Virus record (IMG/VR): IMGVR_UViG_3300040758_000220
Direction: 5' to 3' (one strand)
Source of the DNA: an uncultured virus (IMG/VR IMGVR_UViG_3300040758_000220)
Taxonomy: Duplodnaviria; Heunggongvirae; Uroviricota; Caudoviricetes
DNA: 64,000 nt
Part shown: one piece after another, positions 229 through 63,709 of the stretch
Numbering within the stretch: position 1 is the first letter of the stretch
How the letters are laid out: the number at the start of each line of letters is the position of its first letter
The notes under the pieces: model-generated
Databases searched by the model: none
What the model saw: only the letters and a program-made list of their open reading frames with translations
Told to the model about the DNA's origin: nothing
Position numbers and translations under genes: made by a program

Positions 229-1043
229 GGCCGGAACGTCGCCCCGATGTGCCGGGCCAGCGGGTAAGGGATTTTGGCGATCATGGCGCTGGCGGCTTTG
301 CGGGTGGGAGACTTGCTGCTTGTCGTGACGCTGATCGACTCTGGATCGTGCCACCACGTGCCGCCCTGCTTCAGATGGTCGGGCACCATTCGGTTGCAGG
401 ATATCAACGTGCCATTAGGGCGCCACCCTTTTCCGTCATGCTTAACACCATCTGGCAGAAGATAATGGAACGCCGCCGCCTCCTCTGGCGTGCTGGCAAC
501 GCGCTCGCTCCAATTTCTCGGAGCGCAGGAAGCCTGAGATTTCATCCGCTTGCCGCGCGCCAGAGGCATCAACGCCGGCACATCCCCCCAAAGATGATAC
601 GACCCAAACGCCCACCGCGACCGCCCTACCCAAGGCTGCGCGCCACGCACGTTCTCCACGATCAACGGCACCCGATGCCCCGCTGCGACCGAAGCCTGAG
701 CCTGTATCCGAAAGCACGCATCGAACAGCGCCGTCAGGTCCGTCAGCATCTTGCCGGACGTATCAGCACGGATCGCAGCCGCCTTCGCCTTCGCGCGCGT
801 CCATGGCATCGCCATGTAGGAAAATTCCTGGCACGGTGGCGACGCCACGATCAGCGCAGCGTCCTTGAACTGCGCGCCGTGCAGCGTCAGCACGTCCTAG
901 ATCACCAGCGTCGCGGGGTAGCGATGCTCGCCATAGACGTGCCGCTCGATGTCGAAACCTACAACTCGGTATCCCTCCGCCAACAGTCCTTCCGCCCACC
1001 CTCCCAAGCCGCAGTAGAGGTCGATGGCGAGCGGGCGCCCCAC
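216..1043 (-). pseudogene. C5 DNA cytosine methyltransferase-like gene with in-frame amber stop at 897-899
   Basis: Motif I (IDLYCGLGGW) and catalytic ASPPCQEFS plus ENV lie in one frame, separated by LVI*DVL (TAG). Confidence 0.8.
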
Positions 1044-1045
1044 CG

Positions 1046-1366
1046 CTACCCCTTCGGCGCCCGCACCGCCGCCACCGTCGAGGCCGGCGCAGCGATGACG
1101 GGCGTCCCGGTGTTCAGCGCCGACGCGATCAGCGTCAGGCTGTTGGCATCCACCGCCGCGCAGGCCGGGCTGCTCACCAGCACGTCGGCGGCGGTCAGGG
1201 CCTTCGTGGCGTTGGAGCCGGTGGTGATCGAGGCCGCGACCGCGTTGTAGCACGGGAGCGCGGAGGCGGCGATGCTGAGCGCGGCCTGCTGCTGGGCGGT
1301 GGTGCAGGCGGCGAGGGCCAGCGCGAGGGCTGGGGCGGCGGCGAGGATGGTGCGGCGGGTGAGCAT
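1046..1366 (-). CDS. Putative lipoprotein (lysis-region type)
   Basis: MLTRRTILAAAPALALALAAC signal/lipobox; AAGGAG RBS upstream. Confidence 0.65.
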   Translation of the reverse strand: MLTRRTILAAAPALALALAACTTAQQQAALSIAASALPCYNAVAASITTGSNATKALTAADVLVSSPACAAVDANSLTLIASALNTGTPVIAAPASTVAAVRAPKG

Positions 1367-1394
1367 GTGCGGGTCTCCTTGGGTCAGAGGCAAA

Positions 1395-1685
1395 CTAGGG
1401 GTAGGCGGTAGCAAGCTCGGCGTTAGTGATGTTCTCGTCGCACCACTGACACCATTGCATGTGAACGGCGATCGGGACGCCATAGACCGGCACACGAACC
1501 AAGCCAAAAGCGTCCCGCCAAACGATTTCTTCGCCGGCCGGTTCGATCAGGCCCTTATCCAACAATACCCGGAGTGTGTCGGCGCCAGCGAAGGCGTGCA
1601 TACCGATCACAATTCGCTTGAACGCCGCGCGCTGAGCCTTGGTCAGTCCAGCGGTCGGGTTGCGTGTCGGCACATCATCCTCCAT
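1395..1685 (-). CDS. Hypothetical phage protein
   Basis: 96-aa ORF with protein-like composition in operon orientation. Confidence 0.55.
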   Translation of the reverse strand: MEDDVPTRNPTAGLTKAQRAAFKRIVIGMHAFAGADTLRVLLDKGLIEPAGEEIVWRDAFGLVRVPVYGVPIAVHMQWCQWCDENITNAELATAYP

Positions 1686-3740: not shown

Positions 3741-4043
3741 ATGACCGATTTTGTCCAGCCAACCCAGGGAGAATGGTACCACGCGGCTGCCCGCAGCGCG
3801 AAAGCGGGCAGCCCGATGACGACCAGGGCGGTTCAACAGAAAATTGCACGCCTCGCGACGGGCGGCATGCCTCGGGTCCTGGACCTGTTCTCAGGCTGCG
3901 GCGGCCTGTCCCTCGGCTTCAAAGCCGCCGGATTCGAAATACGGGCCGCCATCGAATTCGACCCCGAGGCCGCGCGCTCGCATGGCCGAGCGGTAGCCAA
4001 TGCCGCTTGCGGAACAGGAACTTGTCGGAGGCGCGGATGGTGA
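3741..4043 (+). pseudogene. Truncated N-terminal fragment of a C5 DNA methyltransferase
   Basis: RVLDLFSGCGGLSLGFKAAGFEIRAAIEFD (motifs I-II), then similarity is lost before the PC motif; AGGAG RBS. Confidence 0.75.
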
Positions 4044-34893: not shown

Positions 34894-35290
34894 AATCTCC
34901 CAGGTCTGGCTGCGAGGCGTGATAGTGCGCCAGCACGTCCGCCGAATCGCGGATTGCGGTCCCGATAGAGTCGCCAGCCAGATCGACGCACGCGGTATCG
35001 AGATGCACCCGCAGCCCGGGACGATCGACCTCGCGCACCATCTTCCAGACCTCGAACCAGTGCGTCAGGAAATCCCCGCCATAGATTTCCGGCACCGGTT
35101 CCAGCCCGATCACAACGCCATGGGCGGCGTCGGCGAGCGACCGCAGCTTGGCAACCGCCCGGTCCCACGCGACGCCCAGAGGTAGGTTCCCGCGCCTCCG
35201 GTTGGCCGGCGCGCCGAACACCATCACGCCGGCACCGAGGGCGTGCGCGACCTCGGCCATCCGGGCGAAATGGTCGCGGAGCAAGAGCAT
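34682..35290 (-). pseudogene. Sugar phosphate isomerase/epimerase (xylose-isomerase-like TIM barrel), N-terminally truncated by the IS end
   Basis: VFGAP.NRR, LEP...YGGDF, HLDTAC, HYHASQP and IEM motifs; begins immediately after the IS right end. Confidence 0.75.
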
Positions 35291-36543
35291 CTGACATCCT
35301 CTCGACCCCTGAAGGGCCGAGGTTCCTAGGCGGCTCACGCTGCCAACTCCAGGATGGTTCCTGCTTCAACGGGCCGCTTAGTGCGGTGCCCCTCCACAGG
35401 CTTCAACGCGCAGTCCGCGCGCCGTAGTATGTTGATCGCCGCGTTCGTGTCGGCATTGGCTTCGTGGGCACAAGCGACGCACACAAACCGCGCCTGATCG
35501 AGCCGACTGGCGATATCGACCACGCCGCACTCCGAACAAGTCTGGCTGGTGTAGGCCGCTGGCACTTCAATTAGTCTGCCGCCACGATCCGCCAGCTTGT
35601 AGCTGAGGAACCGGCTGAACATGCCCCATCCTTGATCGAGGATGGCGCGGTTCAATCCGGCCTTCTGCCGCACCTTTCGGCCGGGTGCCTCTGCTGTGCC
35701 TTTCGCAGATGCGGACATGTTCCGCACCTTCAGCGCCTCCACAACGACGATACCGTGGTTCTTGGCAATGTCGGTTGAGACCTTGTGGAGAAAGTCCTTG
35801 CGGGCGTTCGCCACCCGCAACTGTATCTTGGCAACGCGACGGATAGCCTTGCGCCGGTTGGACGATCCGCGCCGCTTGCGGCTCAGTACGCGCTGAGCGC
35901 GCCGCAGCGACCGCAGCGCCTTCTTGCCGTGGTTGGCGGGTGCAATAGATGTGCCGTCGCTCAGAGCAGCGAACACGGCTATGCCGCGATCTATACCGAC
36001 CGATGGCAGTTCGCTCGGCGCTAGTTCAGCCGCTTTCTGTTCCCACTGAATAGCGACGTGCCATTGCCCCGCGCAGCGGGAGACCGTCGCGTTGCAGATA
36101 TCGCCGGGTATTCCATACCACCCACGAAGGCTGATCCAGCCGAGCTTCGGCAGTTTGATCCGGCCAGATGATTTGCCGGTGCGCTCAACTTTGATCGAGA
36201 TGGGATCGGGAAACCGGAAGCTATCGTTGACGCCCTTCTTGCGGGGCGTCGGCGCCTCGGCACGACCTGCCCACCAATTCATATAGGCGCGATCGAGGTC
36301 CTTCAGCGCCTGCTGTAGCGTATGCACCGGGCACGCCTTCAGCCAGCCCACCTCGGCCCGCAGCATGGTGACTTCGCGACATTGGCTGGCGAAGGAGAAC
36401 TTGCGGCCGGGCCGATACCAGTCGCGGCGCTGCTCCAGGGCGACGTTGTAGACGAACCGGCAGGCGCCAGCGATCTGCGCCATCTGAGCACCTTGCTCTG
36501 ACGTGGGATACAGCCGGAAAAGATTGGCCTTACGGTCAACCAC
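35291..36543 (-). mobile_element. IS200/IS605-family remnant (tnpB plus right end; no tnpA or left end)
   Basis: Right-end hairpin CTCGGCCC-TTCAG-GGGTCGAG followed by AGGATGTCA(G). Confidence 0.75.
35335..36543 (-). CDS. tnpB: RNA-guided endonuclease TnpB
   Basis: FRLYPT..Q, GACRFVYN, GIDRG, VVEAL, YTSQTCSECG, NADTNAAINI; RuvC D/E/D intact. Confidence 0.95.
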   Translation of the reverse strand: MVDRKANLFRLYPTSEQGAQMAQIAGACRFVYNVALEQRRDWYRPGRKFSFASQCREVTMLRAEVGWLKACPVHTLQQALKDLDRAYMNWWAGRAEAPTPRKKGVNDSFRFPDPISIKVERTGKSSGRIKLPKLGWISLRGWYGIPGDICNATVSRCAGQWHVAIQWEQKAAELAPSELPSVGIDRGIAVFAALSDGTSIAPANHGKKALRSLRRAQRVLSRKRRGSSNRRKAIRRVAKIQLRVANARKDFLHKVSTDIAKNHGIVVVEALKVRNMSASAKGTAEAPGRKVRQKAGLNRAILDQGWGMFSRFLSYKLADRGGRLIEVPAAYTSQTCSECGVVDIASRLDQARFVCVACAHEANADTNAAINILRRADCALKPVEGHRTKRPVEAGTILELAA

Positions 36544-37477
36544 CCACAATCTCCAATACCCGGTCCGCCGCCATGAAAATCCCGCTGATTTTGCCTGAGA
36601 GCACCGATATCACCTTGCCCTGCTGGAAAACACGGCACGCCCTGCCTTCCGATAGTCCGGGCATCTTGGTTTTGTCCGAGATTTGCGGCCCCACGAAGCG
36701 GAAGATGTCGTGAAACGTCGGGAAGTGGCGGGCGACCTCATCCTCCATGGCGGCGCGTTTCGCTTCCACGTCCACGACCCCGTCCACCGGCGTGTGCCGC
36801 ACCGACGCCAGCGTGAAAATATCCGGCTCCTCGGTCGGATAGATCGCGCACAGCGGACCGTAGACCAGCATCACCGCGGGGAATGGCTGATTTGCGTGGT
36901 AGCGCAGCAGAATCGCCTGTTCATAGAAGATTTCTATCGGAACCGGGCAGAGATGGCCGTAGGTCGCATCGACCACGCGATCGAACGCCGCGACATCGGC
37001 CAGCGACACCGCACGGCCAAATTGCGCGACACCCGCCAGCCGGCGGGTAAAGTGCGCCCGCGCCTTCGCGGTCAGGATCAGCCGTTCACTGACCTGGATG
37101 CAGCCTTCGATGCCGGTCAGGAAGTCCGGCGCCGGCACGATGGTGAATGGCAACCCCGCCGCCTTCATGATCGTGCAGTAGGTCCGGAAGTCGAGCAGCG
37201 AGTCCCGCTCCGGCACCGCGTACAGGTTGACGGGAATCTCCCTGGTCAAGTGCGGGTAGGCTTGCATGAACCGATAGAAGCCGGCCCATGCCTGGACGCG
37301 CGTCTCGTGGTTGCAGGGGTAGTGGAAGCCTTGATGAAGGCGGAACTGGTTGTTGCCGGACGCCTCGTGCAGCAGTTCGTGGTTGCGCTCGAACAGCGTT
37401 ACGTCGTGATTGTGGTCCAGGAGGATGGTGGCGATGTGCGCGCCGAACCAGCCGCCGCCGATGATGGCGATGCGCAT
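36536..37477 (-). CDS. FAD-dependent oxidoreductase
   Basis: MRIAIIGGGWFG Rossmann motif, ASGNNQFRLHQGFHYP, SGKI; TAATG-coupled to the portal gene. Confidence 0.85.
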   Translation of the reverse strand: MRIAIIGGGWFGAHIATILLDHNHDVTLFERNHELLHEASGNNQFRLHQGFHYPCNHETRVQAWAGFYRFMQAYPHLTREIPVNLYAVPERDSLLDFRTYCTIMKAAGLPFTIVPAPDFLTGIEGCIQVSERLILTAKARAHFTRRLAGVAQFGRAVSLADVAAFDRVVDATYGHLCPVPIEIFYEQAILLRYHANQPFPAVMLVYGPLCAIYPTEEPDIFTLASVRHTPVDGVVDVEAKRAAMEDEVARHFPTFHDIFRFVGPQISDKTKMPGLSEGRACRVFQQGKVISVLSGKISGIFMAADRVLEIVGG

Positions 37478-47247: not shown

Positions 47248-47400
47248 AGATATCCGGGAGTTTCCCGTCCTCTGCGCGAGGCCACAGAACGATGTCGCCG
47301 TTGCCGCGCACGGCGTAGAGGCATGGATGGCCGCGAATCAGGTCGTCGGCGCCTTCCTTCGTGAACCCGTCGATCATCGTTTCGTCCACCCGGATCAGCC
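47237..47400 (-). pseudogene. 3' half of a phage gene split by IS1595 element 1
   Basis: In frame with 51488-51691 once the element and one target duplication are removed (...HRLI RVDETMIDG...IYVE*). Confidence 0.7.
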
Positions 47401-47469
47401 CGGACTTATGGCGCAAGTGTCTAAGGAAACCTCTAGTCCCTGACTGCGACTCTTCCTACCATATACGGT

Positions 47470-47922
47470 ATGGAAAATCCAGACATCATCGCCGCCCTAC
47501 TCGCCAAGCGAGCCGAGATCGGCAAGGCAATCGCAGACCTGCAACGCCAGGAACGCAAGCGCAAGGCCGAGATGGTCCAGCTTGACGCGACCATCAAGCT
47601 GTTCGCCCCAAGCGTCACGCTGGCCAAGCGCGAGGCGACCAAGTTCGCCCGATCGGTGCATTTCGTGGTGGGGGAGCTATCCCGCCGCTGCAACCAGGCC
47701 CTCCGTGAGGCCAATGGGCAGCCAATCACGGCGGATATGCTGGCGGTGGCCGCGATGCGGGAGAAAGGTCTGGACTTGGGCGACGGGGAACTGCGGCAGG
47801 ACATCGGGCGCCGGTTCTTGTGGACCTTGGCCAGGATGCTGCCGCGCAAGGGTGTGGTCAGGGACGGGTACGGGGCTGGGGCTGGGTGGACGCTGCCTGA
47901 AGTTCAACGGCACGACGGCTAA
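47470..47922 (+). CDS. Coiled-coil plus winged-helix-like accessory protein
   Basis: L.AKRAEI...I.......LDATIKLF; F..GEL.R....LREA; similar to 62946-63362. Confidence 0.7.
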   Translation: MENPDIIAALLAKRAEIGKAIADLQRQERKRKAEMVQLDATIKLFAPSVTLAKREATKFARSVHFVVGELSRRCNQALREANGQPITADMLAVAAMREKGLDLGDGELRQDIGRRFLWTLARMLPRKGVVRDGYGAGAGWTLPEVQRHDG

Positions 47923-48354
47923 TATTTTTTTTGACACCGGCTGGCACGGTAGCGAGGACATCGTTCCCGGCGCGAGTCGGGCATCAAGATACAGTGCCGC
48001 AAGTGGGTCCAGGTGGACCGATGGCACAACATATAGCAGAAGGGGCATTCTTTCGGTCGAGTCGGCCGGCGCCCCGCGAAAGATTGTGTCGGGGCTGGAC
48101 AAAAACCGGCGTCCCTCACAAAATTTGTTGACAACTAGCAGATACCACCCCGAGTATCCTTTTCCACACAAGGTGGCCCCTTTCAATGGCTTCCTGAGGG
48201 AGGTTCTCATTGGACATGAGGATGGGCGCGTATGCCCGATGTCTGCCCGATGAGAAGCGCCCGCTGCGTGCCGTCGCGCTAGTGTGTTCCCGCCCTTCGG
48301 CGAATTCACGAGCAACCTCCGCTCGCCGTAACCATTCTTAACGGTAGATCGGGT

Positions 48355-48702
48355 ATGTCGGGAAGTGGAGGGGCCGGCAGCGGCCAGCGCACACATGGTC
48401 CATATCACAGGATACACACTCCCAGCCAGACCGAGCAGACGGCGCGCCTCCAGTTTGCCAGCGGTCAGGTATGGGGGCGCGAGGCAAAATGGAGTTCGCT
48501 TCTCTCCGTCAAAGCTTACCGGGGGCCGCTACCCCCGACGGACGAGGGCATCGAGTTCTACACCGATGTCCAACCCTCCCCAGGGCAACACCCTTCTGAC
48601 GTGTTCTGGTACGCCGGCACCCCTGGTGTCACCGTGGCGCCGATCGACGGTCGCGACTTCGCCATCATTACGGTGCGAATCACCACGTACCGATATCTGT
48701 AG
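48355..48702 (+). CDS. Small cargo protein, possible toxin
   Basis: YHR...VKAY.GPL....GIEF.TDV.P; abuts an acidic partner ORF. Confidence 0.5.
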   Translation: MSGSGGAGSGQRTHGPYHRIHTPSQTEQTARLQFASGQVWGREAKWSSLLSVKAYRGPLPPTDEGIEFYTDVQPSPGQHPSDVFWYAGTPGVTVAPIDGRDFAIITVRITTYRYL

Positions 48703-49065
48703 GTGAGTACGATGAAACGAGTGTACACAGCTACCGAGCCTCTCCCCCCGCTCGACCTAGCGCCGCAAGCGGTAGTGAATGTGTCGGTTGCGAAGCTCCA
48801 TCACGATCAAGGCATCGATTTTGAAAGCGGAGAGGATGATCTCGACACTTACAAGGCGGCTTATTTTCGATTGGACGACAATCAGATAGTTGCCCTAATC
48901 CATCACGCTAGAGAACCTCAAGGTAGCATAAGCATCTATCTTGACCGCGGCCTCGGACCTAAGCGGGTCAAAAAAGTGGTCCATGCGGTGATAACCAGCC
49001 TAGGAATTGCTGACGGGCTGGTAGGCTGGGTGGAAACGGAAGTCCTTCGGCCTCCCATAGTCTAG
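48703..49065 (+). CDS. Small cargo protein, possible immunity/antitoxin
   Basis: Acidic FESGEDDLD motif; starts 1 nt after the partner. Confidence 0.5.
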   Translation: MSTMKRVYTATEPLPPLDLAPQAVVNVSVAKLHHDQGIDFESGEDDLDTYKAAYFRLDDNQIVALIHHAREPQGSISIYLDRGLGPKRVKKVVHAVITSLGIADGLVGWVETEVLRPPIV

Positions 49066-49071
49066 CCGCAT

Positions 49072-50055
49072 TTACCCAGCCTTGTGCCTCTGCCAGTAGC
49101 CGCAGAAATCGACTGACGGCCCGTTCGACATCGCCAGCTTGACGGCGTGCTGCGTCTGCTCCCCATTCGAGACGCGCCGGTTATCCTCACGCCATGCGCT
49201 TTCGCGGGCATAGTTCGCCAGATATGCGCCGCTGATATGGTGAAAATGGCCGCGCTCGCCGCGCCGCAGACGCGAGAAGGCCGACTCCGCGAGGTTCGAT
49301 GACACGCCGTTCAAGCTATAGGCTTCGCCGTGGTCGATGCGGCTGACGGCATAGTGAGCGTCCAGCGGGTTCCAGGAAGACGCTTCGTCCACCACAATGT
49401 TCGATCCCTTGGCGACGTGGGCAGCGATCCAGCCGACCGATTGGGCTTCGGCTTGGAACACGCTGGACACGATCTTGCCCTCTCGCTCACGCGCGATCAC
49501 CACCACCTTGCGCTTGCCGGACTGATTGCGTGCCAGTCGCCGGTCGCGGCGGTTCTCTTTGAGGTTCGCGGGCCGGACGTGGCCTCCCGCGTACATGCCG
49601 TCTATCTCAACCGTTTTGCCTTCGCCACCGACCCGCGCGCCTTTCATTTCGGAACCGATGGCCTCGCGGATTTTGTGCATCAACACGAAGCTGGTCTTGT
49701 AGCTGGTGCCCAGATCGCGAGACAGAGCCAGCGCATTCTTGCCTTTGACTTCGTTCATCGCCAGCGCAATCGCGCATAGATAGACCTGCAACGGCATCTT
49801 GTGCGAGGCGAAAAGGGTTCCGCTCGATATGGAAAATTCCTTGTCGCAAGCCTTGCAACGCCACCGCAGCGGGCCGCGGGCGCGTCGCACGGTGTAATGC
49901 ACCAACCCGCCGCAGTATGGGCACACCGGCTCCCCATTGGTCTCTGGCCAGCGGATGCGGGCGAACAGCAACTCGGCGTCTGCGTTCGACAACCGCATGA
50001 CGTGCGCCAGTGTGAGGGTCTTGGCGGCGGGGGAGAGTAGGAAGTGCTGGGACAT
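49072..50055 (-). CDS. IS1595-family DDE transposase
   Basis: RWP...PVCPYCG...CKAC Zn ribbon, VEIDG, VVDE, IDH, SNLAES. Confidence 0.95.
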   Translation of the reverse strand: MSQHFLLSPAAKTLTLAHVMRLSNADAELLFARIRWPETNGEPVCPYCGGLVHYTVRRARGPLRWRCKACDKEFSISSGTLFASHKMPLQVYLCAIALAMNEVKGKNALALSRDLGTSYKTSFVLMHKIREAIGSEMKGARVGGEGKTVEIDGMYAGGHVRPANLKENRRDRRLARNQSGKRKVVVIAREREGKIVSSVFQAEAQSVGWIAAHVAKGSNIVVDEASSWNPLDAHYAVSRIDHGEAYSLNGVSSNLAESAFSRLRRGERGHFHHISGAYLANYARESAWREDNRRVSNGEQTQHAVKLAMSNGPSVDFCGYWQRHKAG

Positions 50056-50166
50056 GGCAACATCACCACATTCGATGTATCTACCCCGAATGTGATGGCG
50101 ATATTCACCGTTGTCAAGGGTAAAAACATCGGATACGATGATATTTCACATCGGACGGAGGGCGAT

Positions 50167-50394
50167 ATGCCCGAGGAGCACTGGCAGAAGCGGGTGAAGG
50201 GGATTCTGAAGGCCGAACTGAAGCGCCGGCATGTCGGCTACAAGGAACTGGCCGAGAGGCTGCACACCGTGGGGGTGGAGGAAACCGACCGGAACATTGC
50301 CAACAAGATCGCGCGTGGCGGGTTCAGCGCGGTGTTCTTTGTTCAATGCCTACAGGCTATCGGGTGCCATACGGTGCATCTTGAAGACGCCTAG
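50167..50394 (+). CDS. DUF6471-like HTH regulator
   Basis: W...VKGILKAELKRR.V.Y.ELA..L...G..ET..NIANKI.RG.FSA.FF.QCL. Confidence 0.85.
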   Translation: MPEEHWQKRVKGILKAELKRRHVGYKELAERLHTVGVEETDRNIANKIARGGFSAVFFVQCLQAIGCHTVHLEDA

Positions 50395-50419
50395 GCTTCG
50401 GGGTGAGGTTCCCTGCGGC

Positions 50420-51358
50420 TTGAAGGTCGCAGGGACTGCCATCTTCCTCGCGTTGCTCGCCGCGTATGTCGGCACATACATAGTCAGCCAGTACCGCCAA
50501 ACGGAGCTATATCAGCCAACCCCAAGTAGCAGGGATGGCAGTCGCGACCCACAATCCCATCCCCAAACATCCAACCAGCAGACTGGCGATGAGCCAAGCG
50601 GCACCGAGCAGAAACCGTTCGTCGTAAAGGTAGCCCCATCCCCGGAGGCTCAACCCGAGACACCCGAACAGCGAGAGGCCCGCAAAGCAAAAGCGACGGA
50701 TGACCATCTGGGCGTTGTATTCTCTGGCATCGCCGCCTTCGCCACGGTTCTCTTGGTGTTCGTAACCGGCGGCCTGTGGGTTGCCACTTATCGGCTGTAT
50801 CGCGGAACCCTGCGAGCCATCAAAGGTGAGGAAAAGGCCGCCAAGGCCATGAGCGATCTGGCGACAACTGCCGACAAGACCGCTGAACGGCAGCTTCGAG
50901 CATATGTGTTCGTCGAGAACGCATGGGTCATATGGGTGCCAGACGAAGATGATCTGTCTAGAGATGAAAATGTCAGATTCACAGGCAAGGACCCATGGTA
51001 CGTTCTGTATAAGTTGAAAAACTATGGCGTCACTCCTGCCTATAAAACGCGTGTCAAGCATGTTGCGACCGTAGTTAACTGGCCGCCAGACGGTCTCCCG
51101 ACGCCTGTAGACGGTGACTACTTTGGGACCGTCGCGCCGAACGAAGACTTTATCGACAACGAGACCACCAAGGTCGAGGGAATGCCGCTCGGAGAAATTA
51201 TAGCTGAATACAAAGCCGTTATGCTCATCGGCCGCATCGACTATCTCGACGCGTTCAGCAAAGAACGATGGACCGAATTCTGTTACTACTTGAATGGCAC
51301 CATTCCCGACGATGGCGAGATGTCCATTCACGACGCCGGAAACGAGTCCGACCAATAG
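50420..51358 (+). CDS. Membrane-anchored cargo protein (start uncertain)
   Basis: Two TM helices; ERQLRAYV, LKNYG.TPA and GRIDYLDAF motifs; lower GC. Confidence 0.65.
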   Translation: MKVAGTAIFLALLAAYVGTYIVSQYRQTELYQPTPSSRDGSRDPQSHPQTSNQQTGDEPSGTEQKPFVVKVAPSPEAQPETPEQREARKAKATDDHLGVVFSGIAAFATVLLVFVTGGLWVATYRLYRGTLRAIKGEEKAAKAMSDLATTADKTAERQLRAYVFVENAWVIWVPDEDDLSRDENVRFTGKDPWYVLYKLKNYGVTPAYKTRVKHVATVVNWPPDGLPTPVDGDYFGTVAPNEDFIDNETTKVEGMPLGEIIAEYKAVMLIGRIDYLDAFSKERWTEFCYYLNGTIPDDGEMSIHDAGNESDQ

Positions 51359-51487
51359 CGCAACCGTCATTGCGATGCACCTCACATGCATAGCACTCGT
51401 CCCTTGCATCTGTCTCATTTATGGTATATTCAGGAAAGTGCTAGTGCTGGCCTAGCGGTTTCCTTAGACACTTGCGCCATAAGTCCG

Positions 51488-51691
51488 GATCAGCCGATGG
51501 AGAACGCGAAGTCTGGCCTTCTCAGCCTCGGCAACCAGCCTATGTAGCCGCTGCACGTCGCCCAGGACTTGCTTGACGGTCGGTTCGTCAAGCCCGGGCG
51601 CGGACGGCGCCACATATTCCAGGTTCGGCGACGCGAAACGCGGCTGCGGTTTTGTTCGCCTCTTGCGTGGCGCCTTCGGTTTGACGGTCAA
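51488..51691 (-). pseudogene. 5' half of the phage gene split by IS1595 element 1
   Basis: ORF runs into the target duplication and inverted repeat. Confidence 0.65.
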
Positions 51692-57894: not shown

Positions 57895-58050
57895 CGTCCC
57901 TTATGACGTTGCGTTGGGTGGGTGTCAAGGGGTATCAGATACTCCAAAGGAGACCGCTGATGGCTGGATTGCGGTATTATGTAGCAACGGGCACCAAATC
58001 GGATTGGGCCGGATCGGCCCTAATCCCCACCTACTTCTGGTAGGTGCGCC

Positions 58051-58950: not shown

Positions 58951-59193
58951 CTAAAGGTCCGCCAGCGCCAGCACCGTGATTCCAAGCACGGTCAGGCAGG
59001 CCAGGAAGAACGTCACGGAGAAGGTTCCGCGCGCCAGTTTGGCCGTAACCGATCCCTCCGTCTCCCCCTCGAATCCGTGCTCCCGGAGCCGGCGGGCAAG
59101 CTCGGCATAGGTCACGTCTGCCCGCTTTAGCTCGGCCTTGAGCAACCGACGCGCCTTGTCGGCCCACTCCTTCTCTTTGGTTGCAAGCCCCAT
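58951..59193 (-). CDS. DUF6471-like HTH regulator
   Basis: W...ARRLLKAELKRA.VTY.ELA.RL; paralogue of 50167-50394. Confidence 0.85.
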   Translation of the reverse strand: MGLATKEKEWADKARRLLKAELKRADVTYAELARRLREHGFEGETEGSVTAKLARGTFSVTFFLACLTVLGITVLALADL

Positions 59194-59302: not shown

Positions 59303-60289
59303 ATGTCCCAACACTTCCTCCTCTCCGCCGCCGCTCGCACCCTCTCCCTGGGCGCCGTGCTTCGCATGACCCCCGAGGAAGCCGAGGCGGCTTTCCGGTC
59401 GATCCGCTGGCATGACACAGATGGCAAGCCGGTGTGCCCGCACTGCGGCTGCCCCACGGTATGGGACTGCCGCAAAGCCAATGGCGCCCCGCGCTGGCGT
59501 TGCAAGGCGTGCCGCAAGTGCTTCTCGGTCACGTCCGGGACGCTGTTCGCGTTCCACAAGCTGCCCATCCGCGATTACCTCGCGGCCATCGCCATCTTTT
59601 GCAACGAGGTGAAGGGCAAATCGGCCCTGGCGCTGTCCCGCGATCTGGGGACACAGTACAAGACCGCTTTCGTCCTAGCGCACAAGCTGCGCGAGGCGAT
59701 GGCGTCGGAACTCAAGGGCCTGATGGTGGGCGGACCCGGCAAGGTCGTGGAAACTGACGGCGGCTATTTTGGCGGCTACGTAAAGCCGGCCAACTACAAG
59801 GAGAACCGCCGCGACCGCAGGCTGGCGCAGAACCAGAACGGCAAACGCCAGGTCGTGGTGGTGGTCCGGGAGCGGGATGGGCGCACCCTGCCGGCCGTGT
59901 TCAAGTCCGAGGGCGCCGCGCTGGGGTTCATAACGTCCCGCGTTGCCAAGGGCACCGAGCTTGTGGCCGACGAAGCCGCGTCGTGGAATGACCTACAGGC
60001 CCGGTTCGCCATGCAGCGGATCGACCACGGGCAAGCGTACTCGGATCGCGGCGTCTACTCGAATGGCGCCGAAGAGTTCTTCTCCCGGATGCGCCGGGGC
60101 GAGATCGGGCACCACCACCACGTCGCCGGGCCGTATCTGATCCGCTACGCGCAAGAGGCGTCCTGGCGCGAGGATCACCGGCGGGTGGACAACGGCCGGC
60201 AGGTCCAGGGCGTGATGGGGCTGGCGATGGCTTGCCGGCCGAGCGTGGACTGGTGTGGGTACTGGCAGAGGGCGCAGAAGGCGGCGTAG
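59303..60289 (+). CDS. IS1595-family DDE transposase
   Basis: Zn ribbon CPHCG/CKAC, VETDG, VADE, SNGAEE; clearly homologous to 49072-50055. Confidence 0.95.
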   Translation: MSQHFLLSAAARTLSLGAVLRMTPEEAEAAFRSIRWHDTDGKPVCPHCGCPTVWDCRKANGAPRWRCKACRKCFSVTSGTLFAFHKLPIRDYLAAIAIFCNEVKGKSALALSRDLGTQYKTAFVLAHKLREAMASELKGLMVGGPGKVVETDGGYFGGYVKPANYKENRRDRRLAQNQNGKRQVVVVVRERDGRTLPAVFKSEGAALGFITSRVAKGTELVADEAASWNDLQARFAMQRIDHGQAYSDRGVYSNGAEEFFSRMRRGEIGHHHHVAGPYLIRYAQEASWREDHRRVDNGRQVQGVMGLAMACRPSVDWCGYWQRAQKAA

Positions 60290-60295
60290 CGCCAC

Positions 60296-60790
60296 TCAGG
60301 CCGCTTCCGAGTATTCCTTCACTGGGCCGGGCTGATTGTCCACTAGCGCATCAAATTCCGCGTCTCTCCGTTTCCGAAGCATTTCGGTGGCCCACCGCAT
60401 CAGACTGGTGGATGGCGCCCCACGCTTGCGCATCATCTCCAGTTGGGGGGGCACATAAAGGAGTGACTGAGTATGGCGCTCGGCAAGTCGTCCAAGCGCT
60501 TCGCCGCGCCCGGTGTTGGCCCAGGCCCACTCGAAATCGTCCTTGAGGAATTCAAACGGCGTTGCTAATCTGTCCCGCAGGACGCGCCCCACGAGCCCAG
60601 CCTCTTGCTCCTTGAGACGGACGCGGGCGATCAGTCCCAAAACGCGTACAGGACCGTATGTCATCTCGGCGATGACGCCGAGAGGGATGATGTGGCCGGC
60701 TTCCCGTTGCAGATCGCAATGGTACACGATGCGCGACAGGGTGAGGCGACCCGGCCGGATCGCTACCACGTTGTCGGTCATCAAACGCAC
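60296..60790 (-). CDS. DUF3037-like partner of a HipA-like kinase
   Basis: IVY..D.......IPLGVI pattern; directly downstream of the kinase. Confidence 0.55.
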   Translation of the reverse strand: MRLMTDNVVAIRPGRLTLSRIVYHCDLQREAGHIIPLGVIAEMTYGPVRVLGLIARVRLKEQEAGLVGRVLRDRLATPFEFLKDDFEWAWANTGRGEALGRLAERHTQSLLYVPPQLEMMRKRGAPSTSLMRWATEMLRKRRDAEFDALVDNQPGPVKEYSEAA

Positions 60791-60794
60791 TCCT

Positions 60795-61595
60795 TCAGAC
60801 GCCCAACACGGCCCGAAGGCCGGTCCTTCGGGCCAGCAGGTTACCTAGTATGTTCGCTCGGAATGGCTGTGGCAAGTAGAACATAGGGAGTCGGTTCACC
60901 AGCCTGGCAATCTCCCCTTCGGGGAGAGCGCATATCCGATCGGCTGTTTCGGCCATCACGTCGGCGTGATCCGCTCCCGGCAGCCCAGGTCCCAGGAGCG
61001 CGACCGGGCTGGTTGGCCCTTTCCAGCTATAGGACATGGAGTGGCCATGATCGTAAAAACCGGTCTGACCTTCCTCGTCAGGGCTGTCTAAGTTGAAATT
61101 GACGTGATCGAGCTTCCGGTCGCCATCGCCGATCCAAGTGTGGAACACCCGCATGGCGGAAAATGTCGGCAGGGCGCCAGACGCCTGCTGCCCCGAGATA
61201 AGGTTCCGCTTGGCAGCCTCATTCCATTTCATCGACTGATGAAAGGCCCAGGCGGATATTGATCGCCCCAGCTTGTATTGTCCTGGCGCAGATGCGCCCC
61301 AAAGGACAACAGGACAGACCGGGAGAGCGAGTAGATAGGCCAAATCGAACGCCAGTTTCTCGTGGGCCGCTCGACAATGTCCGGTCTCGCCGCCCTTGTT
61401 TGGCCCCGGCTTAGCGACGCCGCGCACCCCGCTAATCTTGTTAACGACATTGATGGATTGGGATTCCCCTTCCGGGAGAGCCGCCCCCTCTCTCCACTCA
61501 TCAGGTGATGTCTCAATCGTCGCAAACCACTCATCTCGGAAGGACCGTTGAACTACCGAAAATCGTACTGCGGCCGCTGTGCGCCGACCACTCAT
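60795..61595 (-). CDS. HipA-like (PI3/PI4-kinase fold) protein kinase
   Basis: VAK, HEKLA.DLA..L.LPV.P, FHTWIG.GDR, YDHG, L..RR. Confidence 0.75.
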   Translation of the reverse strand: MSGRRTAAAVRFSVVQRSFRDEWFATIETSPDEWREGAALPEGESQSINVVNKISGVRGVAKPGPNKGGETGHCRAAHEKLAFDLAYLLALPVCPVVLWGASAPGQYKLGRSISAWAFHQSMKWNEAAKRNLISGQQASGALPTFSAMRVFHTWIGDGDRKLDHVNFNLDSPDEEGQTGFYDHGHSMSYSWKGPTSPVALLGPGLPGADHADVMAETADRICALPEGEIARLVNRLPMFYLPQPFRANILGNLLARRTGLRAVLGV

Positions 61596-61765: not shown

Positions 61766-62536
61766 TTAGGCAGCGCCGTCGGACGGGAGCAGAGAAGCGG
61801 CTAGGCGGCTGCGAGCAAGGCCCGCTTCTGCCCTATCGAGGTCGCGTCCGATTTTCGACCGGCACTGAGCCAGAAGGCGCCCGTCAACGCTTGACGGTAG
61901 GCCCCGCCCCATCTCCCACATATCATGAACGGCCGCGACATCGGACGGGGTTAGTCTGGGGGCAAACTGAGAGACGACATCGTCTATGGCGACTTGGACA
62001 TCCGTGGCCTGTTTCGTCGTCCCGTCGATCTCGCCCTCCGTGATTTCTGATGTCGAGTAGATGCCCTTCTTGGTGGGAACCGCAAACAACATGCCCTTCT
62101 GCACCATTCGATAAAGCTTTGATGTCAACTGGTTACGCTTGTGTATTTCCTTAGTGGCCTTGTACAACCCGATCAATATCCTATCCAGCGATAGGATGCC
62201 CCCCGCCTCATTGATCAGATTGAGAATGGCGAACTCAAGCTTGTCGGCGTTCGACACGCTCAGCTCAGCCAACAGTTCCTCGGGAAGGTCTGCGACGTCC
62301 TCCGGTGTCAGTGTCAGCCGCTGGGCCAACCCAGGGCGAACGGCGGCGTGGCCGGCCGTTGCGGCGTCTAGCTCCCTTTGTGCGGCCACCAAGCTATCCG
62401 CGAGGTTAGCGAATTGACTTGCTGACTGAATATGACGATCATGACGCCACGGCTCCCCCGCATAGCGGTGGGCTAACTTCTCGTGAACTCCCTGTTGTTC
62501 CTTGACAAAAGGGAGATAGCTAACTAGATTGCTCAA
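61766..62536 (-). CDS. Winged-helix-like protein downstream of the atypical tRNA
   Basis: AGGAG RBS plus TTG start about 20 nt after the tRNA CCA; LSLDRILIGLY...LTSKLYRMVQKG....V..KKGIY wHTH pattern. Confidence 0.7.
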   Translation of the reverse strand: MSNLVSYLPFVKEQQGVHEKLAHRYAGEPWRHDRHIQSASQFANLADSLVAAQRELDAATAGHAAVRPGLAQRLTLTPEDVADLPEELLAELSVSNADKLEFAILNLINEAGGILSLDRILIGLYKATKEIHKRNQLTSKLYRMVQKGMLFAVPTKKGIYSTSEITEGEIDGTTKQATDVQVAIDDVVSQFAPRLTPSDVAAVHDMWEMGRGLPSSVDGRLLAQCRSKIGRDLDRAEAGLARSRLAASLLPSDGAA

Positions 62537-62556
62537 GCTCAGTCTCCTAGATTGAG

Positions 62557-62650
62557 TGGCGGAAGGGGCGGGATTCGAACCCGCGGTACCCCGGCTAGGG
62601 GGTACGAGGTGTTGGTAGCACCCCGGCATAGGCCGCTCGCCCACCCTTCC
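62557..62650 (-). tRNA. Atypical tRNA: serine-type body with Gly anticodon ACC
   Basis: GGAAGGG TG GGCG AGCGGCCTA TGCC G GGGTG CTACCAA CACCT C GTACCCC CTAGCC GGGGTAC C GCGGG TTCGAAT CCCGC CCCTTCC G CCA; all stems pair and CCA is encoded. Confidence 0.92.
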
Positions 62651-62774
62651 ACGATGCACCGGCACCATTGCCGGCATGTCTTCGTCTTCTTCCTCTGCAG
62701 AACCACACACACTTCCGTATCAATATCGCGAAGGGGCTTGTGCCGTAGCGGTGCAGGCCCCTTCCGCGTTACGA

Positions 62775-62803
62775 ATTATAGGCGAAGACGAACCGAATTG
62801 TAA
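62775..62803 (-). promoter_or_regulatory. Sigma70-like promoter upstream of the tRNA
   Basis: TTACAA-N17-TATAAT (consensus -10) on the minus strand. Confidence 0.6.
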
Positions 62804-62945
62804 GTAGAGGCGAGCCGGCTCGTGGCCGGCGCGTGAGTAACGCGAATTTGTTCGCATTCCGTCCCATGACGCGCGACTAGATTGGTTTGAGTCGCAATTA
62901 TGCGACGCGCCGAAAATGGGAGCGGGGCGTCCGCGAAATGGCGCC

Positions 62946-63362
62946 CTACACCAGCGCGCGCCGCGTCGCCTTCCCCATCCCCACCGTCCGCGCCATGCCC
63001 CGGGCCTGGAGCTTGCCGAACGTCTCCCGGAGCTTGGTCCGCGTCCGCTTCATGGTGTGCCGATCCGGGAACCGGACACCCTTCGCCCGGAGCGCGCCCA
63101 GCGCCATGTCCCGAATCGCCAGCGGCTTCTCGGCCTCGCGGAGCATGTCGATCGCCAGCCGGCGTAGCTCGCCCCGCTTGAAGATCGGGTTGGGCTTGTG
63201 GAACCGGGGCGGCAGCTTGAGGTCGGGGGCGATGGCCTGGATGCGGGCTTCTAGGTCCGCTAGCTTGTCGCGGTAGCCCTGAGCGAGCGTCTCGGCTTGC
63301 TTCAAGGCAAAGTGGCAGCGGGTCCGGGCGCGGCGGAGCTTGGTTAGGTCTGTGTCTTTCAC
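62946..63362 (-). CDS. Coiled-coil plus winged-helix-like accessory protein
   Basis: FKRGELRRL....LREAEKP; same position inside the IR as 47470-47922. Confidence 0.7.
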   Translation of the reverse strand: MKDTDLTKLRRARTRCHFALKQAETLAQGYRDKLADLEARIQAIAPDLKLPPRFHKPNPIFKRGELRRLAIDMLREAEKPLAIRDMALGALRAKGVRFPDRHTMKRTRTKLRETFGKLQARGMARTVGMGKATRRALV

Positions 63363-63431
63363 GCCGGATATGCTAGAGAATCAGCGGCTTGGAGGCTTTG
63401 GCCTTGTGGTGCCCGTTGCTACATAATACCG

Positions 63432-63709
63432 CTGGATTGCCCGACATGGACCTGTTCTCCTACGCCCCACCCACCTCCCCGACCCCACGCGAGGAACCCT
63501 CCGCCGCCCTGTTCCCGGATGCCACGCCGCCAGAGCAGGTGCGGTGCTCCGGTGATTGCGTCTGGATCGAGTTTGGGCTGGCAACGGCTGAGAGCGGGTG
63601 CGAGATGTGCCGGGCGATTGATCTGGCGTCGGGGGTGTACGTGCCGTTTGCGGTTACGGTGCGGGAGGTGTTTGGGGAGGCGGTTGACGACGCGGCTATG
63701 TCGGGCTAA
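63432..63709 (+). pseudogene. 3' part of a phage gene split by IS1595 element 2 (5' end: ATG at 57960)
   Basis: AAGGAG RBS plus ATG GCT GGA TTG at 57960 joins CCC GAC ATG... after the element is removed; an internal ATG could allow a restart. Confidence 0.65.

Follow-up and report, generated by a model that had tools for sequence, protein, structure and literature searches.

To our knowledge, bacteria rarely possess natural tRNAs that violate the genetic code; those described so far belong to the allo-tRNAs or to the tRNA-ProX family. A further candidate is reported here from a stretch of 64,000 nucleotides of an uncultured Caudoviricetes virus (IMG/VR record IMGVR_UViG_3300040758_000220), called "the window" throughout. 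Close to its end, a transposon of the IS1595 family carries a tRNA gene which, judged by its letters, is an intact tRNA combining the complete bacterial tRNA-Ser recognition set with a glycine anticodon, ACC. The gene stands directly before that of a protein family indicated as P_B. Such a pair, a serine-type tRNA with a non-serine anticodon directly before P_B, recurring on mobile DNA, is what is new here, and may represent a recurring device, not a one-off mutation. That the window tRNA acts as a mistranslator is plausible.

Among the closest published systems, allo-tRNAs accept serine and have 35 kinds of anticodon; they were detected in peat and forest soils, in the vicinity of transposons and of toxin-antitoxin genes (Mukai et al. 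2017, Nucleic Acids Res 45:2776; PMC5389517). Insertion of serine in E. coli is on record for some of them, inactivity or toxicity for others. The tRNAs described here share with them the combination of serine identity (long variable arm, G73) with diverse non-serine anticodons, and the vicinity of toxin-antitoxin or transposon-related genes, for allo-tRNAs mostly in soil, peat and sediment metagenomes. The architecture is different: allo-tRNAs have 8/4 or 9/3 acceptor and T stems and a D arm resembling that of selenocysteine tRNA (tRNA-Sec), with a long stem and a tetraloop, whereas the window tRNA is of the 7/5 type, with a D stem of 4 bp and a D loop of 9 nt. Since both the 8/4 or 9/3 geometry and the Sec-like D arm fail, it is not filed as an allo-tRNA. 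An earlier interpretation, made from the letters alone (the sequence-only reading), had likened it to allo-tRNAs: as a comparison of function this is apt, while membership of the family does not hold for a 7/5 tRNA with a normal tRNA-Ser D arm.

The tRNA-ProX/ProRSx system of Streptomyces and Kitasatospora (PMC11415595) is also genome-encoded and joins one identity to foreign anticodons; all members have A34, and a dedicated protein gene is co-encoded. In this case, however, the identity is that of proline, the partner is a synthetase paralogue, ProRSx, instead of a winged-helix protein, the A33 and A15-A48 typical of the family are not found in the window tRNA, and the available text reports no transposon or phage cargo. 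Nematode nev-tRNAs (PLoS One 2015, PMC4300185) have a variable arm together with glycine (CCC) or isoleucine (UAU) anticodons and are charged according to their body; they are eukaryotic and leucine-charged, with no link to mobile elements in the text available. Finally, tRNA-Ser genes with engineered anticodons, in yeast, flies and human cells, demonstrate that seryl-tRNA synthetase (SerRS) ignores the anticodon and that the swap causes dose-dependent toxicity (PMC6125640, PMC9258585). These are laboratory constructs or human polymorphisms, unlike a natural transposon gene with a conserved partner. In the literature, as far as its text was available, no account was found of serine-type tRNAs of canonical 7/5 geometry that have non-serine anticodons and are linked to the gene of a winged-helix protein, although the supplements of PMC5389517 may list 7/5 cases.

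The gene is the only tRNA called by ARAGORN in the 64-kb window, with anticodon ACC:

62557–62650, minus strand: class-II tRNA gene, 94 nt (ARAGORN, Rfam, fold, arm-by-arm pair count)

When a 401-nt stretch was searched against Rfam in E-value mode, the gene scored 43.8 bits with model RF00005 (E 3e-8; gathering score 29). It was not listed at 62557–62650 when the whole window was run at the gathering threshold, because the speed filters dropped it; fast Rfam filters can thus lose a genuine class-II tRNA. At minimum free energy the sequence folds into the cloverleaf (-49.1 kcal/mol, z -2.4), and 4 out of 200 shuffled sequences were equally stable. When the sequence is split into arms, the stems measure 7 bp (acceptor), 4 bp (D), 5 bp (anticodon), 7 bp (variable) and 5 bp (T), and all 28 stem pairs are standard, two of them being G-U. 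The D loop has 9 nt and the variable loop 6 nt, with one unpaired base on either side of the variable stem. G1-C72, G2-C71, A3-U70, G73 and an encoded CCA are present. The anticodon loop, CU-ACC-AA, is canonical, with 7 nt, U33 and A37; the ACC lies at 62614–62616, A34 corresponding to 62616 (T on the plus strand).

In its body the tRNA compares with serine tRNAs. In a scan of viral contigs for class-II tRNAs which share the acceptor stem of the window tRNA and have G73 and a common T loop, all of the 120 found have serine anticodons (UGA 85, GGA 16, GCU 13, ACU 4, CGA 2), the best being 78% identical to the window tRNA. The four ACU genes in this set (L012–L131) are a further case of a rare A34 tRNA in bacterial viruses. 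The best BLAST loci in genomes (5 + 401 genomes, the latter an Alphaproteobacteria sample) are tRNA-Ser in 26 cases out of 26, with 67–79% global identity. Among 312 distinct collected tRNAs, a set rich in tRNA-Ser and hence not neutral, the 20 nearest are all tRNA-Ser, and the best identity is 79% for Ser, 68% for Tyr, 64% for Leu and 55% for Gly. Acceptor stem, discriminator, D-arm layout, placement of the variable arm and T arm are as in canonical bacterial tRNA-Ser; the differences are the anticodon (ACC, not NGA or GCU), the D-stem pair 11-24 (G-C, not C-G) and the location, as transposon cargo ahead of a protein gene.

The bacterial serine set consists of G1-C72, G2-C71, G73 and the long variable arm, with no role for the anticodon; the glycine set consists of U73, G1-C72, C2-G71, C35 and C36 (PMC9976931). 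Of the latter, G1-C72, C35 and C36 are present in the window tRNA, while U73, C2-G71 and the short variable loop are missing. What the sequence-only reading had described, namely a fully paired 7/5 cloverleaf with CCA, serine acceptor set, 7-bp variable stem and CU-ACC-AA loop, with intact stems, a serine-type body and neither of the glycine features U73 and short variable loop, is thus found throughout. The presence of C35 and C36, both glycine determinants (PMC9976931), would fit an ordinary glycine decoder with an extra arm, charged by glycyl-tRNA synthetase (GlyRS) through these two bases and supplementing the reading of GGU for the element or for a phage; the window overlaps a viral record (G001, see below), and tRNAs with added arms do occur in phages. 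This explanation is considered very improbable: the discriminator is G73 instead of U73, the second pair G2-C71 instead of C2-G71, A3-U70 is added, and the body is 79% identical to tRNA-Ser versus 55% to tRNA-Gly. Moreover, leucine, arginine and aspartate anticodons are found on the same serine-type body in the sister units described below, so that cognate charging cannot hold for all units. Bacterial tRNA-Leu has A73. For leucyl-tRNA synthetase (LeuRS), G73 is an antideterminant (PMC9976931).

The anticodon is the same wherever the gene was found. Two metagenome contigs, L206 and L207, bear the identical tRNA with ACC; they match the window at 99.97–100% identity, including DNA outside the transposon ends, and, since the match extends past the inverted repeats, represent one and the same insertion in an organism of the same kind. 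No anticodon difference is seen in contigs of the runs X12 and X19 and of the RNA run X20. ACC is therefore repeated in five assemblies besides the window, several of which may stem from one campaign. An assembly error, which the sequence-only reading had named as a result contrary to it, is excluded by this agreement: the probability of an assembly or sequencing artefact at the anticodon is taken as negligible, no point having been found in its favour. A 1.8-kb stretch around the tRNA is nearly complete in 19 DNA runs, dated 2014 to 2025; of the 20 run rows with the stretch (19 DNA, 1 RNA), 11 are flagged as possible source samples. No use was made of the DNA-run labels (peat, wetland, soil) as evidence of habitat.

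Searches beyond this insertion did not retrieve the ACC form. In species-representative genomes, the pattern of a class-II tRNA with CUACCAA loop, G73 and CCA found no other case: among 74 raw matches in genome contigs, one is a tRNA according to ARAGORN, a Ser(CGA) with the motif elsewhere in it. The exact 34-nt 5' half of the tRNA has 0 matches in genome contigs, the 401-nt stretch has no blastn match in plasmids, and three plasmids with the closest transposases have neither a tRNA near the insertion sequence (IS) nor any real match to the window tRNA. BLAST of the tRNA in the 401-genome Alphaproteobacteria sample gave matches of T arm and acceptor only, with no close homologue. The sample includes the unpublished genome G246, on which none of the conclusions depends.

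These results bear on the possibility that the tRNA is a decaying hitch-hiker, a captured tRNA-Ser with a mutated anticodon, neutral or mildly harmful and bound to be lost. The ACC form at a single insertion site, with L206 and L207 matching beyond the inverted repeats, would fit, as would the merely 79% identity of the closest known tRNA-Ser and the lack of any tRNA, by ARAGORN, in 22 of 28 loci related through P_A, a passenger gene of the transposon. In addition, one contig of run X12 (depth 5.35) has T instead of A at window position 62604, which changes the second pair of the variable stem from U-A to A-A and breaks it. Yet all 28 pairs are intact in the window in spite of at least 21% divergence from any tRNA-Ser found, the stretch is unchanged in the DNA-run contigs from 2014 to 2025, and an RNA-library contig spans the tRNA. 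Since, furthermore, three more units retain the tRNA-then-P_B order, with intact cloverleaves and stem changes on both sides, decay is regarded as quite improbable.

A tRNA-then-P_B unit is defined as a gene of the P_B family preceded, at a distance of at most 64 nt and on its own strand, by a class-II tRNA of serine type whose anticodon is not one of serine. Of seven P_B loci with readable upstream DNA, four have such a tRNA and three a hairpin motif. The four units are:

Window unit: IS1595 cargo; 94-nt serine-type tRNA, anticodon ACC (Gly); 20 nt to P_B
L265 unit: phage contig, between the portal and large-terminase genes; 95-nt class-II tRNA, anticodon UAG (Leu); about 22 nt to P_B
L311 unit: Rhizobiales-type genome G1028 (family of Aminobacter); 95-nt tRNA, anticodon CCU (Arg); about 23 nt to P_B
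L312 unit: Burkholderiales-type genome G1314 (order of Ramlibacter); serine-like tRNA, anticodon GUC (Asp); 64 nt to P_B

The L265 tRNA has G1-C72, G2-C71, A3-U70, G73, CCA and a 7-bp variable stem; the L311 tRNA is built in the same way, and its unit is a low-GC islet between housekeeping genes. The GC content of the insert is 52%, versus 62% for the flanks, in L311, and 50% versus 63% for the L265 unit. In the L312 tRNA, 25 of 26 stem pairs are standard (hand count, 88-nt register), in addition to the G13-A22 mismatch usual in tRNA-Ser; its discriminator is uncertain, because the 3' end reads G-ACC, not G-CCA, and the ARAGORN register starts one base earlier. GUC and UAU, predominant anticodons of allo-tRNAs, recur here, the former in L312 and the latter, the commonest in allo-tRNAs, in the loci L229 and L230 described below; for allo-tRNAs, a fixed place before a P_B family is not mentioned in the available text (PMC5389517).

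The window, L265 and L311 tRNAs are 66–77% identical to one another, and each has standard pairs at 27–28 of 27–28 positions. In the three pairwise comparisons, stem changes are found on both sides of a pair 15, 12 and 8 times, and on one side 1, 0 and 1 times: judged by this pattern, the structure of the three tRNAs is under selection. The four unit tRNAs may go back to a single ancestral unit or may have arisen independently from tRNA-Ser genes. As to the anticodons of homologues, whose tabulation had been proposed in the sequence-only reading, the closest relatives all have serine anticodons, and the relatives linked to P_B have UAG, CCU and GUC, none of them serine. The window tRNA is not an isolated oddity, being part of a recurring tRNA-plus-P_B unit with anticodons ACC, UAG, CCU and GUC.

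The gene that follows P_B differs among the units. In the window it encodes a member of a HipA_2-like kinase family; in L311 a ClpP-like protease (837–1385, minus strand; PF00574, E 9e-13); in L312 a weakly matching IS1/HTH_38 transposase-like open reading frame (ORF; 599–1453, minus strand); in L265 no gene follows on the same strand. The P_B family is rare in genomes, with 1 occurrence in 301 (weak, with a stop codon), 1 in 400 scored (G987 unscored), 0 in 2 and 1 in 401. By tblastn against phages and plasmids, three P_B proteins found only the Bordetella avium prophage vB_BaM-IFTN8, with partial matches in Alcaligenes phage CASP1 and a Zymomonas plasmid. A viral scan for a tRNA 3' end joined to a P_B N-terminus yielded 41 raw matches, of which one is real, on the L265 contig. 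The family of P_C, the next gene in the window, is found in 0 of the 401 genomes of the Alphaproteobacteria sample and, among viruses, at one distant locus, without a tRNA. The use of the tRNA as bacterial attachment site (attB) for a P_B cassette was considered and rejected: no integrase is adjacent in the four tRNA-bearing loci, and the tRNA lies inside a transposon (window), between portal and terminase genes (L265) or in low-GC inserts (L311, L312).

The three P_B loci devoid of a tRNA, L264 (about 3925–3962), L266 (about 1878–1915) and L268 (about 2915–2950; prophage vB_BaM-IFTN8), have in its place a two-stem motif, composed of an outer 5-bp stem, a GTTTAAC internal loop, an inner 5-bp stem and a 4-nt loop, just upstream of the P_B ribosome-binding site. 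Compensatory changes are seen in both stems among the three copies, and no Rfam match was found at E <= 0.01 (L264, L266). This substitution suggests that the position may need only a structured RNA. The tRNA could then be a non-decoding leader, whose fold serves the operon transcript while the anticodon, being irrelevant, drifts: it might act as a site for RNase P and 3' processing that sets the 5' end of the P_B mRNA, as a stabiliser, or as a site or decoy to which P_B or a host factor binds. Four different anticodons in four units agree with this, as does the report that some allo-tRNAs are charged but unused in translation, or inactive (PMC5389517); moreover, with a gap of 20 nt to P_B, processing of the tRNA necessarily shapes the 5' end of the mRNA. 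A processing signal alone, however, needs no full serine set, and G1-C72, G2-C71, A3-U70 and G73 are found in all four unit tRNAs (for L312, in the 88-nt register), an encoded CCA in three, and an anticodon loop of the canonical 7 nt, with U33 and A37, again in all four. All four anticodons, in addition, are sense anticodons of amino acids other than serine, where drift predicts some serine ones, four being a small number. A leader RNA of this kind, the main rival of the missense mechanism proposed below, is considered possible, if doubtful.

In the window, the tRNA appears, from the spacing, to be the first gene of a small operon, followed by P_B, P_C and P_D. The features of this region, in the direction of transcription, are:

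62775–62804, minus strand: sigma-70-like promoter candidate, CTTACA-18 nt-TATAAT, 10/12 (consensus match only)
62730–62764, minus strand: 35-nt hairpin with imperfect pairing, located between the promoter-like site and the leader of the tRNA; chance-level "mir-2450" match
62658–62675, minus strand: leader hairpin, 7-bp stem with ATGG loop, 8 nt upstream of the tRNA 5' end (by eye)
62546–62724, minus strand: stretch matched by a 179-nt RNA-library contig, depth 7, 0 differences (metatranscriptome run X20)
61766–62536, minus strand: P_B, 256 aa, gene call P0170; TTG start at 62536; 34 homologue clusters
60795–61595, minus strand: P_C, 266 aa, weak HipA_2 / PI3-PI4-kinase-like family; 78 homologue clusters
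60296–60790, minus strand: P_D, 164-aa ORF, last cargo gene; no family match

P_B starts 20 nt past the CCA of the tRNA, with a Shine-Dalgarno sequence, AGGAG, in between (62544–62548). There is no space for a separate promoter before P_B, so tRNA and P_B must share one. The promoter candidate is about 125 nt upstream of the tRNA; 4 sites were called in the region, versus 0.7 expected from shuffled sequences. Upstream of the L311 and L265 tRNAs the same scan called none, and the -35/-10 candidates seen there by eye fail its rule. In both loci a hairpin with an ATGG-containing loop occupies the same place as in the window, with stems which differ and are nonetheless complementary (by eye, with no statistics).

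The N-terminus of P_B aligns from the first residues with all of the 22 homologues shown, while about 70 C-terminal residues are missing in homologues. The protein has no Pfam family and belongs to an unnamed Atlas cluster of 178 members. It is modelled as a helical hairpin plus a winged helix (AlphaFold2, pLDDT, the predicted local distance difference test, 81), and a fold search gave weak matches to winged helices of MarR/PadR type (E > 3e-3). In the family of P_C, PF20613 is detected in 8 out of 28 aligned members (best E 5e-9) and PF00454 in 6 out of 28; the window P_C itself has no domain match at E <= 1 and no sequence match in the PDB. P_D has no match in Pfam, NCBIfam or PADLOC and was searched for in 29 related IS loci, all of which lack it. 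For 12 ORFs of the element, searches in NCBIfam and PADLOC were without a match.

The RNA-library contig includes, besides the tRNA, 74 nt of leader and 11 nt of trailer, so the window tRNA is apparently expressed. Position 34 is A in this contig, and the assembled sequence accordingly bears no sign of inosine. Coverage by run X20 extends to 2 out of 30 bins of a 5.6-kb stretch, and the missing cover was not used as evidence.

For the decoding properties of such an anticodon, an orthogonal ACC tRNA in E. coli provides a comparison: no inosine was formed, and reading amounted to 1.3% at GGU, 0.40% at GGC and 0.33% at GGG, being undetected at GGA (PMC11066159). In an earlier study (Boren 1993, cited in PMC11066159), an E. 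coli Gly-tRNA(ACC) was strong at GGU and weak at GGC, and competed at GGA and GGG. Among the glycine codons of 30 long window ORFs, GGT accounts for 15% and GGC for 52%.

Two ideas on codon usage were examined and set aside. Recoding in cis of the element's own genes was rejected, the samples being small: in the window P_B, none of the 17 glycine codons is GGT and none of the 17 stands on a serine-majority column; the L265 P_B has one CTA and one CTG among its leucine codons, neither at serine columns; of the five GGT codons of P_A and P_C together, one falls at a near-invariant glycine and one at a serine-majority column. Anticodons aimed at rare codons are not general either: CTG makes up 37 of 87 leucine codons in the L265 phage genes. 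In the genes flanking L311, AGG makes up 2 of 30 arginine codons.

The mechanism proposed for the window tRNA is that of a serylated missense tRNA, cut from the leader of a mobile-element operon, which inserts serine at GGU and at some GGC and GGG codons; it is given an even chance of being right. Transcription would start from the promoter upstream of the leader and, if the spacing is a guide, the tRNA would be the first product of the cargo operon, which would occupy the passenger slot of an active IS1595-family transposon. From established tRNA biology, release by RNase P and 3' processing would follow, as would charging with serine by the host SerRS, irrespective of the anticodon. If it behaves like the published ACC tRNAs, the unmodified A34-C35-C36 would read GGU best and GGC and GGG less, placing serine at glycine codons. 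The tRNA would then be the RNA effector of a mobile-element module, a missense or "toxic" tRNA limited by dose; its transcription would be coupled to the putative DNA-binding protein P_B and probably be under the control of that protein. Addiction, stress-induced diversification of the proteome or abortive infection can be speculated as roles of the module.

Several points weigh against this mechanism. C11-G24 is a serine identity element in E. coli; it is found in the collected tRNA-Ser genes, while the window tRNA has G11-C24, so charging with serine may be inefficient. The element's genes use GGT at conserved glycines (residue 95 of P_A, encoded by GGT, is glycine in 26 of 27 homologues), and serine decoding would therefore damage its own proteins. 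No second CUACCAA tRNA having been found, the ACC form is known from one insertion in one population, where the stem-breaking variant of run X12 also occurs; the two-stem motif in place of the tRNA tells in the same direction. The evidence from X20 consists of one contig in one run, giving no strand, ends or level, from a library in which DNA is possible. The link to P_B as regulator comes from gene order and from the winged-helix match with E > 3e-3. Finally, many allo-tRNAs were found to be inactive in translation (PMC5389517).

A broader version of the missense mechanism would make the units a new class of module, in which a 7/5 serine-accepting tRNA, repeatedly switched in its anticodon (Gly, Leu, Arg, Asp), is co-transcribed with a winged-helix protein that restrains it, loss of control leading to arrest through serine incorporation across the proteome. 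In this extended form the proposal is rather unlikely.

The carrier is an IS1595-family element of 5.46 kb, which encloses the tRNA, as the sequence-only reading had stated. Its features, besides the operon, are:

57971–57996: left terminal inverted repeat, 26 nt, 100% complementary to the right repeat
63407–63432: right terminal inverted repeat, 26 nt, forming a perfect pair with the left repeat
58951–59193, minus strand: 80-aa ORF of the IS core (55–62% identity by tblastn, 7 related loci)
59303–60289, plus strand: IS1595-family transposase, 328 aa, of DDE_Tnp_IS1595 type with N-terminal zinc ribbon (PF12762 E 6e-34, PF12760 E 4e-7)
62946–63362, minus strand: P_A, 138-aa conserved passenger (91 homologue clusters, 28 metagenome loci)

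Target duplications of 8 bp are the figure for the IS1595 family. An 8-bp direct repeat, GCTGGATT, the target-site duplication of this element, is found at 57963–57970 and 63431–63438; the second copy overlaps the called inverted repeat by 2 nt, and the register of the repeat is ambiguous by as much. The transposase is 64% identical to a Skermanella copy and 62–63% identical to copies on Rhodovastum plasmids. P_A accompanies the transposase also in relatives without the tRNA, and in 28 related metagenome loci the core of this IS subgroup consists of the 80-aa ORF, the transposase and P_A. The tRNA, P_B, P_C and P_D are absent in 26 of the 28, the exceptions being L206 and L207, that is, the same insertion; they are therefore extra cargo, located between transposase and P_A.

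Among these P_A-related loci, two have an unrelated tRNA. It is 100 nt long, was reported by ARAGORN as "???(ataa)", and is found in L229 (4019–4118, minus strand) and L230 (339–438, plus strand), related IS1595 loci from other metagenomes. When read with a 7-nt loop, it is of serine type (G1-C72, G2-C71, A3-U70, G73, CCA); its anticodon is UAU and its variable region has about 29 nt. It is an isolated gene between hairpins, and no P_B gene accompanies it.

Another cargo element of the IS1595 family lies in the window at 47400–51488, with 40-nt inverted repeats, 95% complementary, and an 8-bp direct repeat; its transposase (49072–50055) is 62% identical to that at 59303–60289, and its passenger ORFs have no Pfam family. 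Positions 1–47400 of the window match at 99.8–100% the 53.4-kb IMG/VR viral record G001 (CheckV, 83% complete), which explains why most long window ORFs are without Pfam families. The second element is missing from this otherwise about 100% identical record, and such an empty site shows recent IS1595 mobility in the lineage. G001 also features a tRNA-Gln(UUG), located before the point where the window begins; at the place equivalent to window position 35290/35291 it has 181 extra bases, beside a TnpB gene of IS605 type (35335–36549).

The units described were encountered in a transposon, in a phage and in two short inserts of low GC content, of which one adjoins a transposase gene. In them, tRNA and P_B make up a defined two-gene unit, in which the tRNA is tied to one conserved protein family, and the code-breaking principle of allo-tRNAs and tRNA-ProX would here be embodied in a tRNA-Ser of fully canonical build. 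In standard annotation such genes are given the wrong label, tRNA-Gly, -Leu, -Arg or -Asp, and naming by anticodon hides potential mistranslators. If the broader proposal were true, the loss of control, through loss of the element or a shut-off induced by a phage, would cause serine misincorporation throughout the proteome and arrest of the cell; the HipA_2-like kinase of the window and the ClpP-like protease of L311 would be add-on effectors, and the unit, with a tRNA as its toxin, would serve in abortive infection or as a toxin-antitoxin system.

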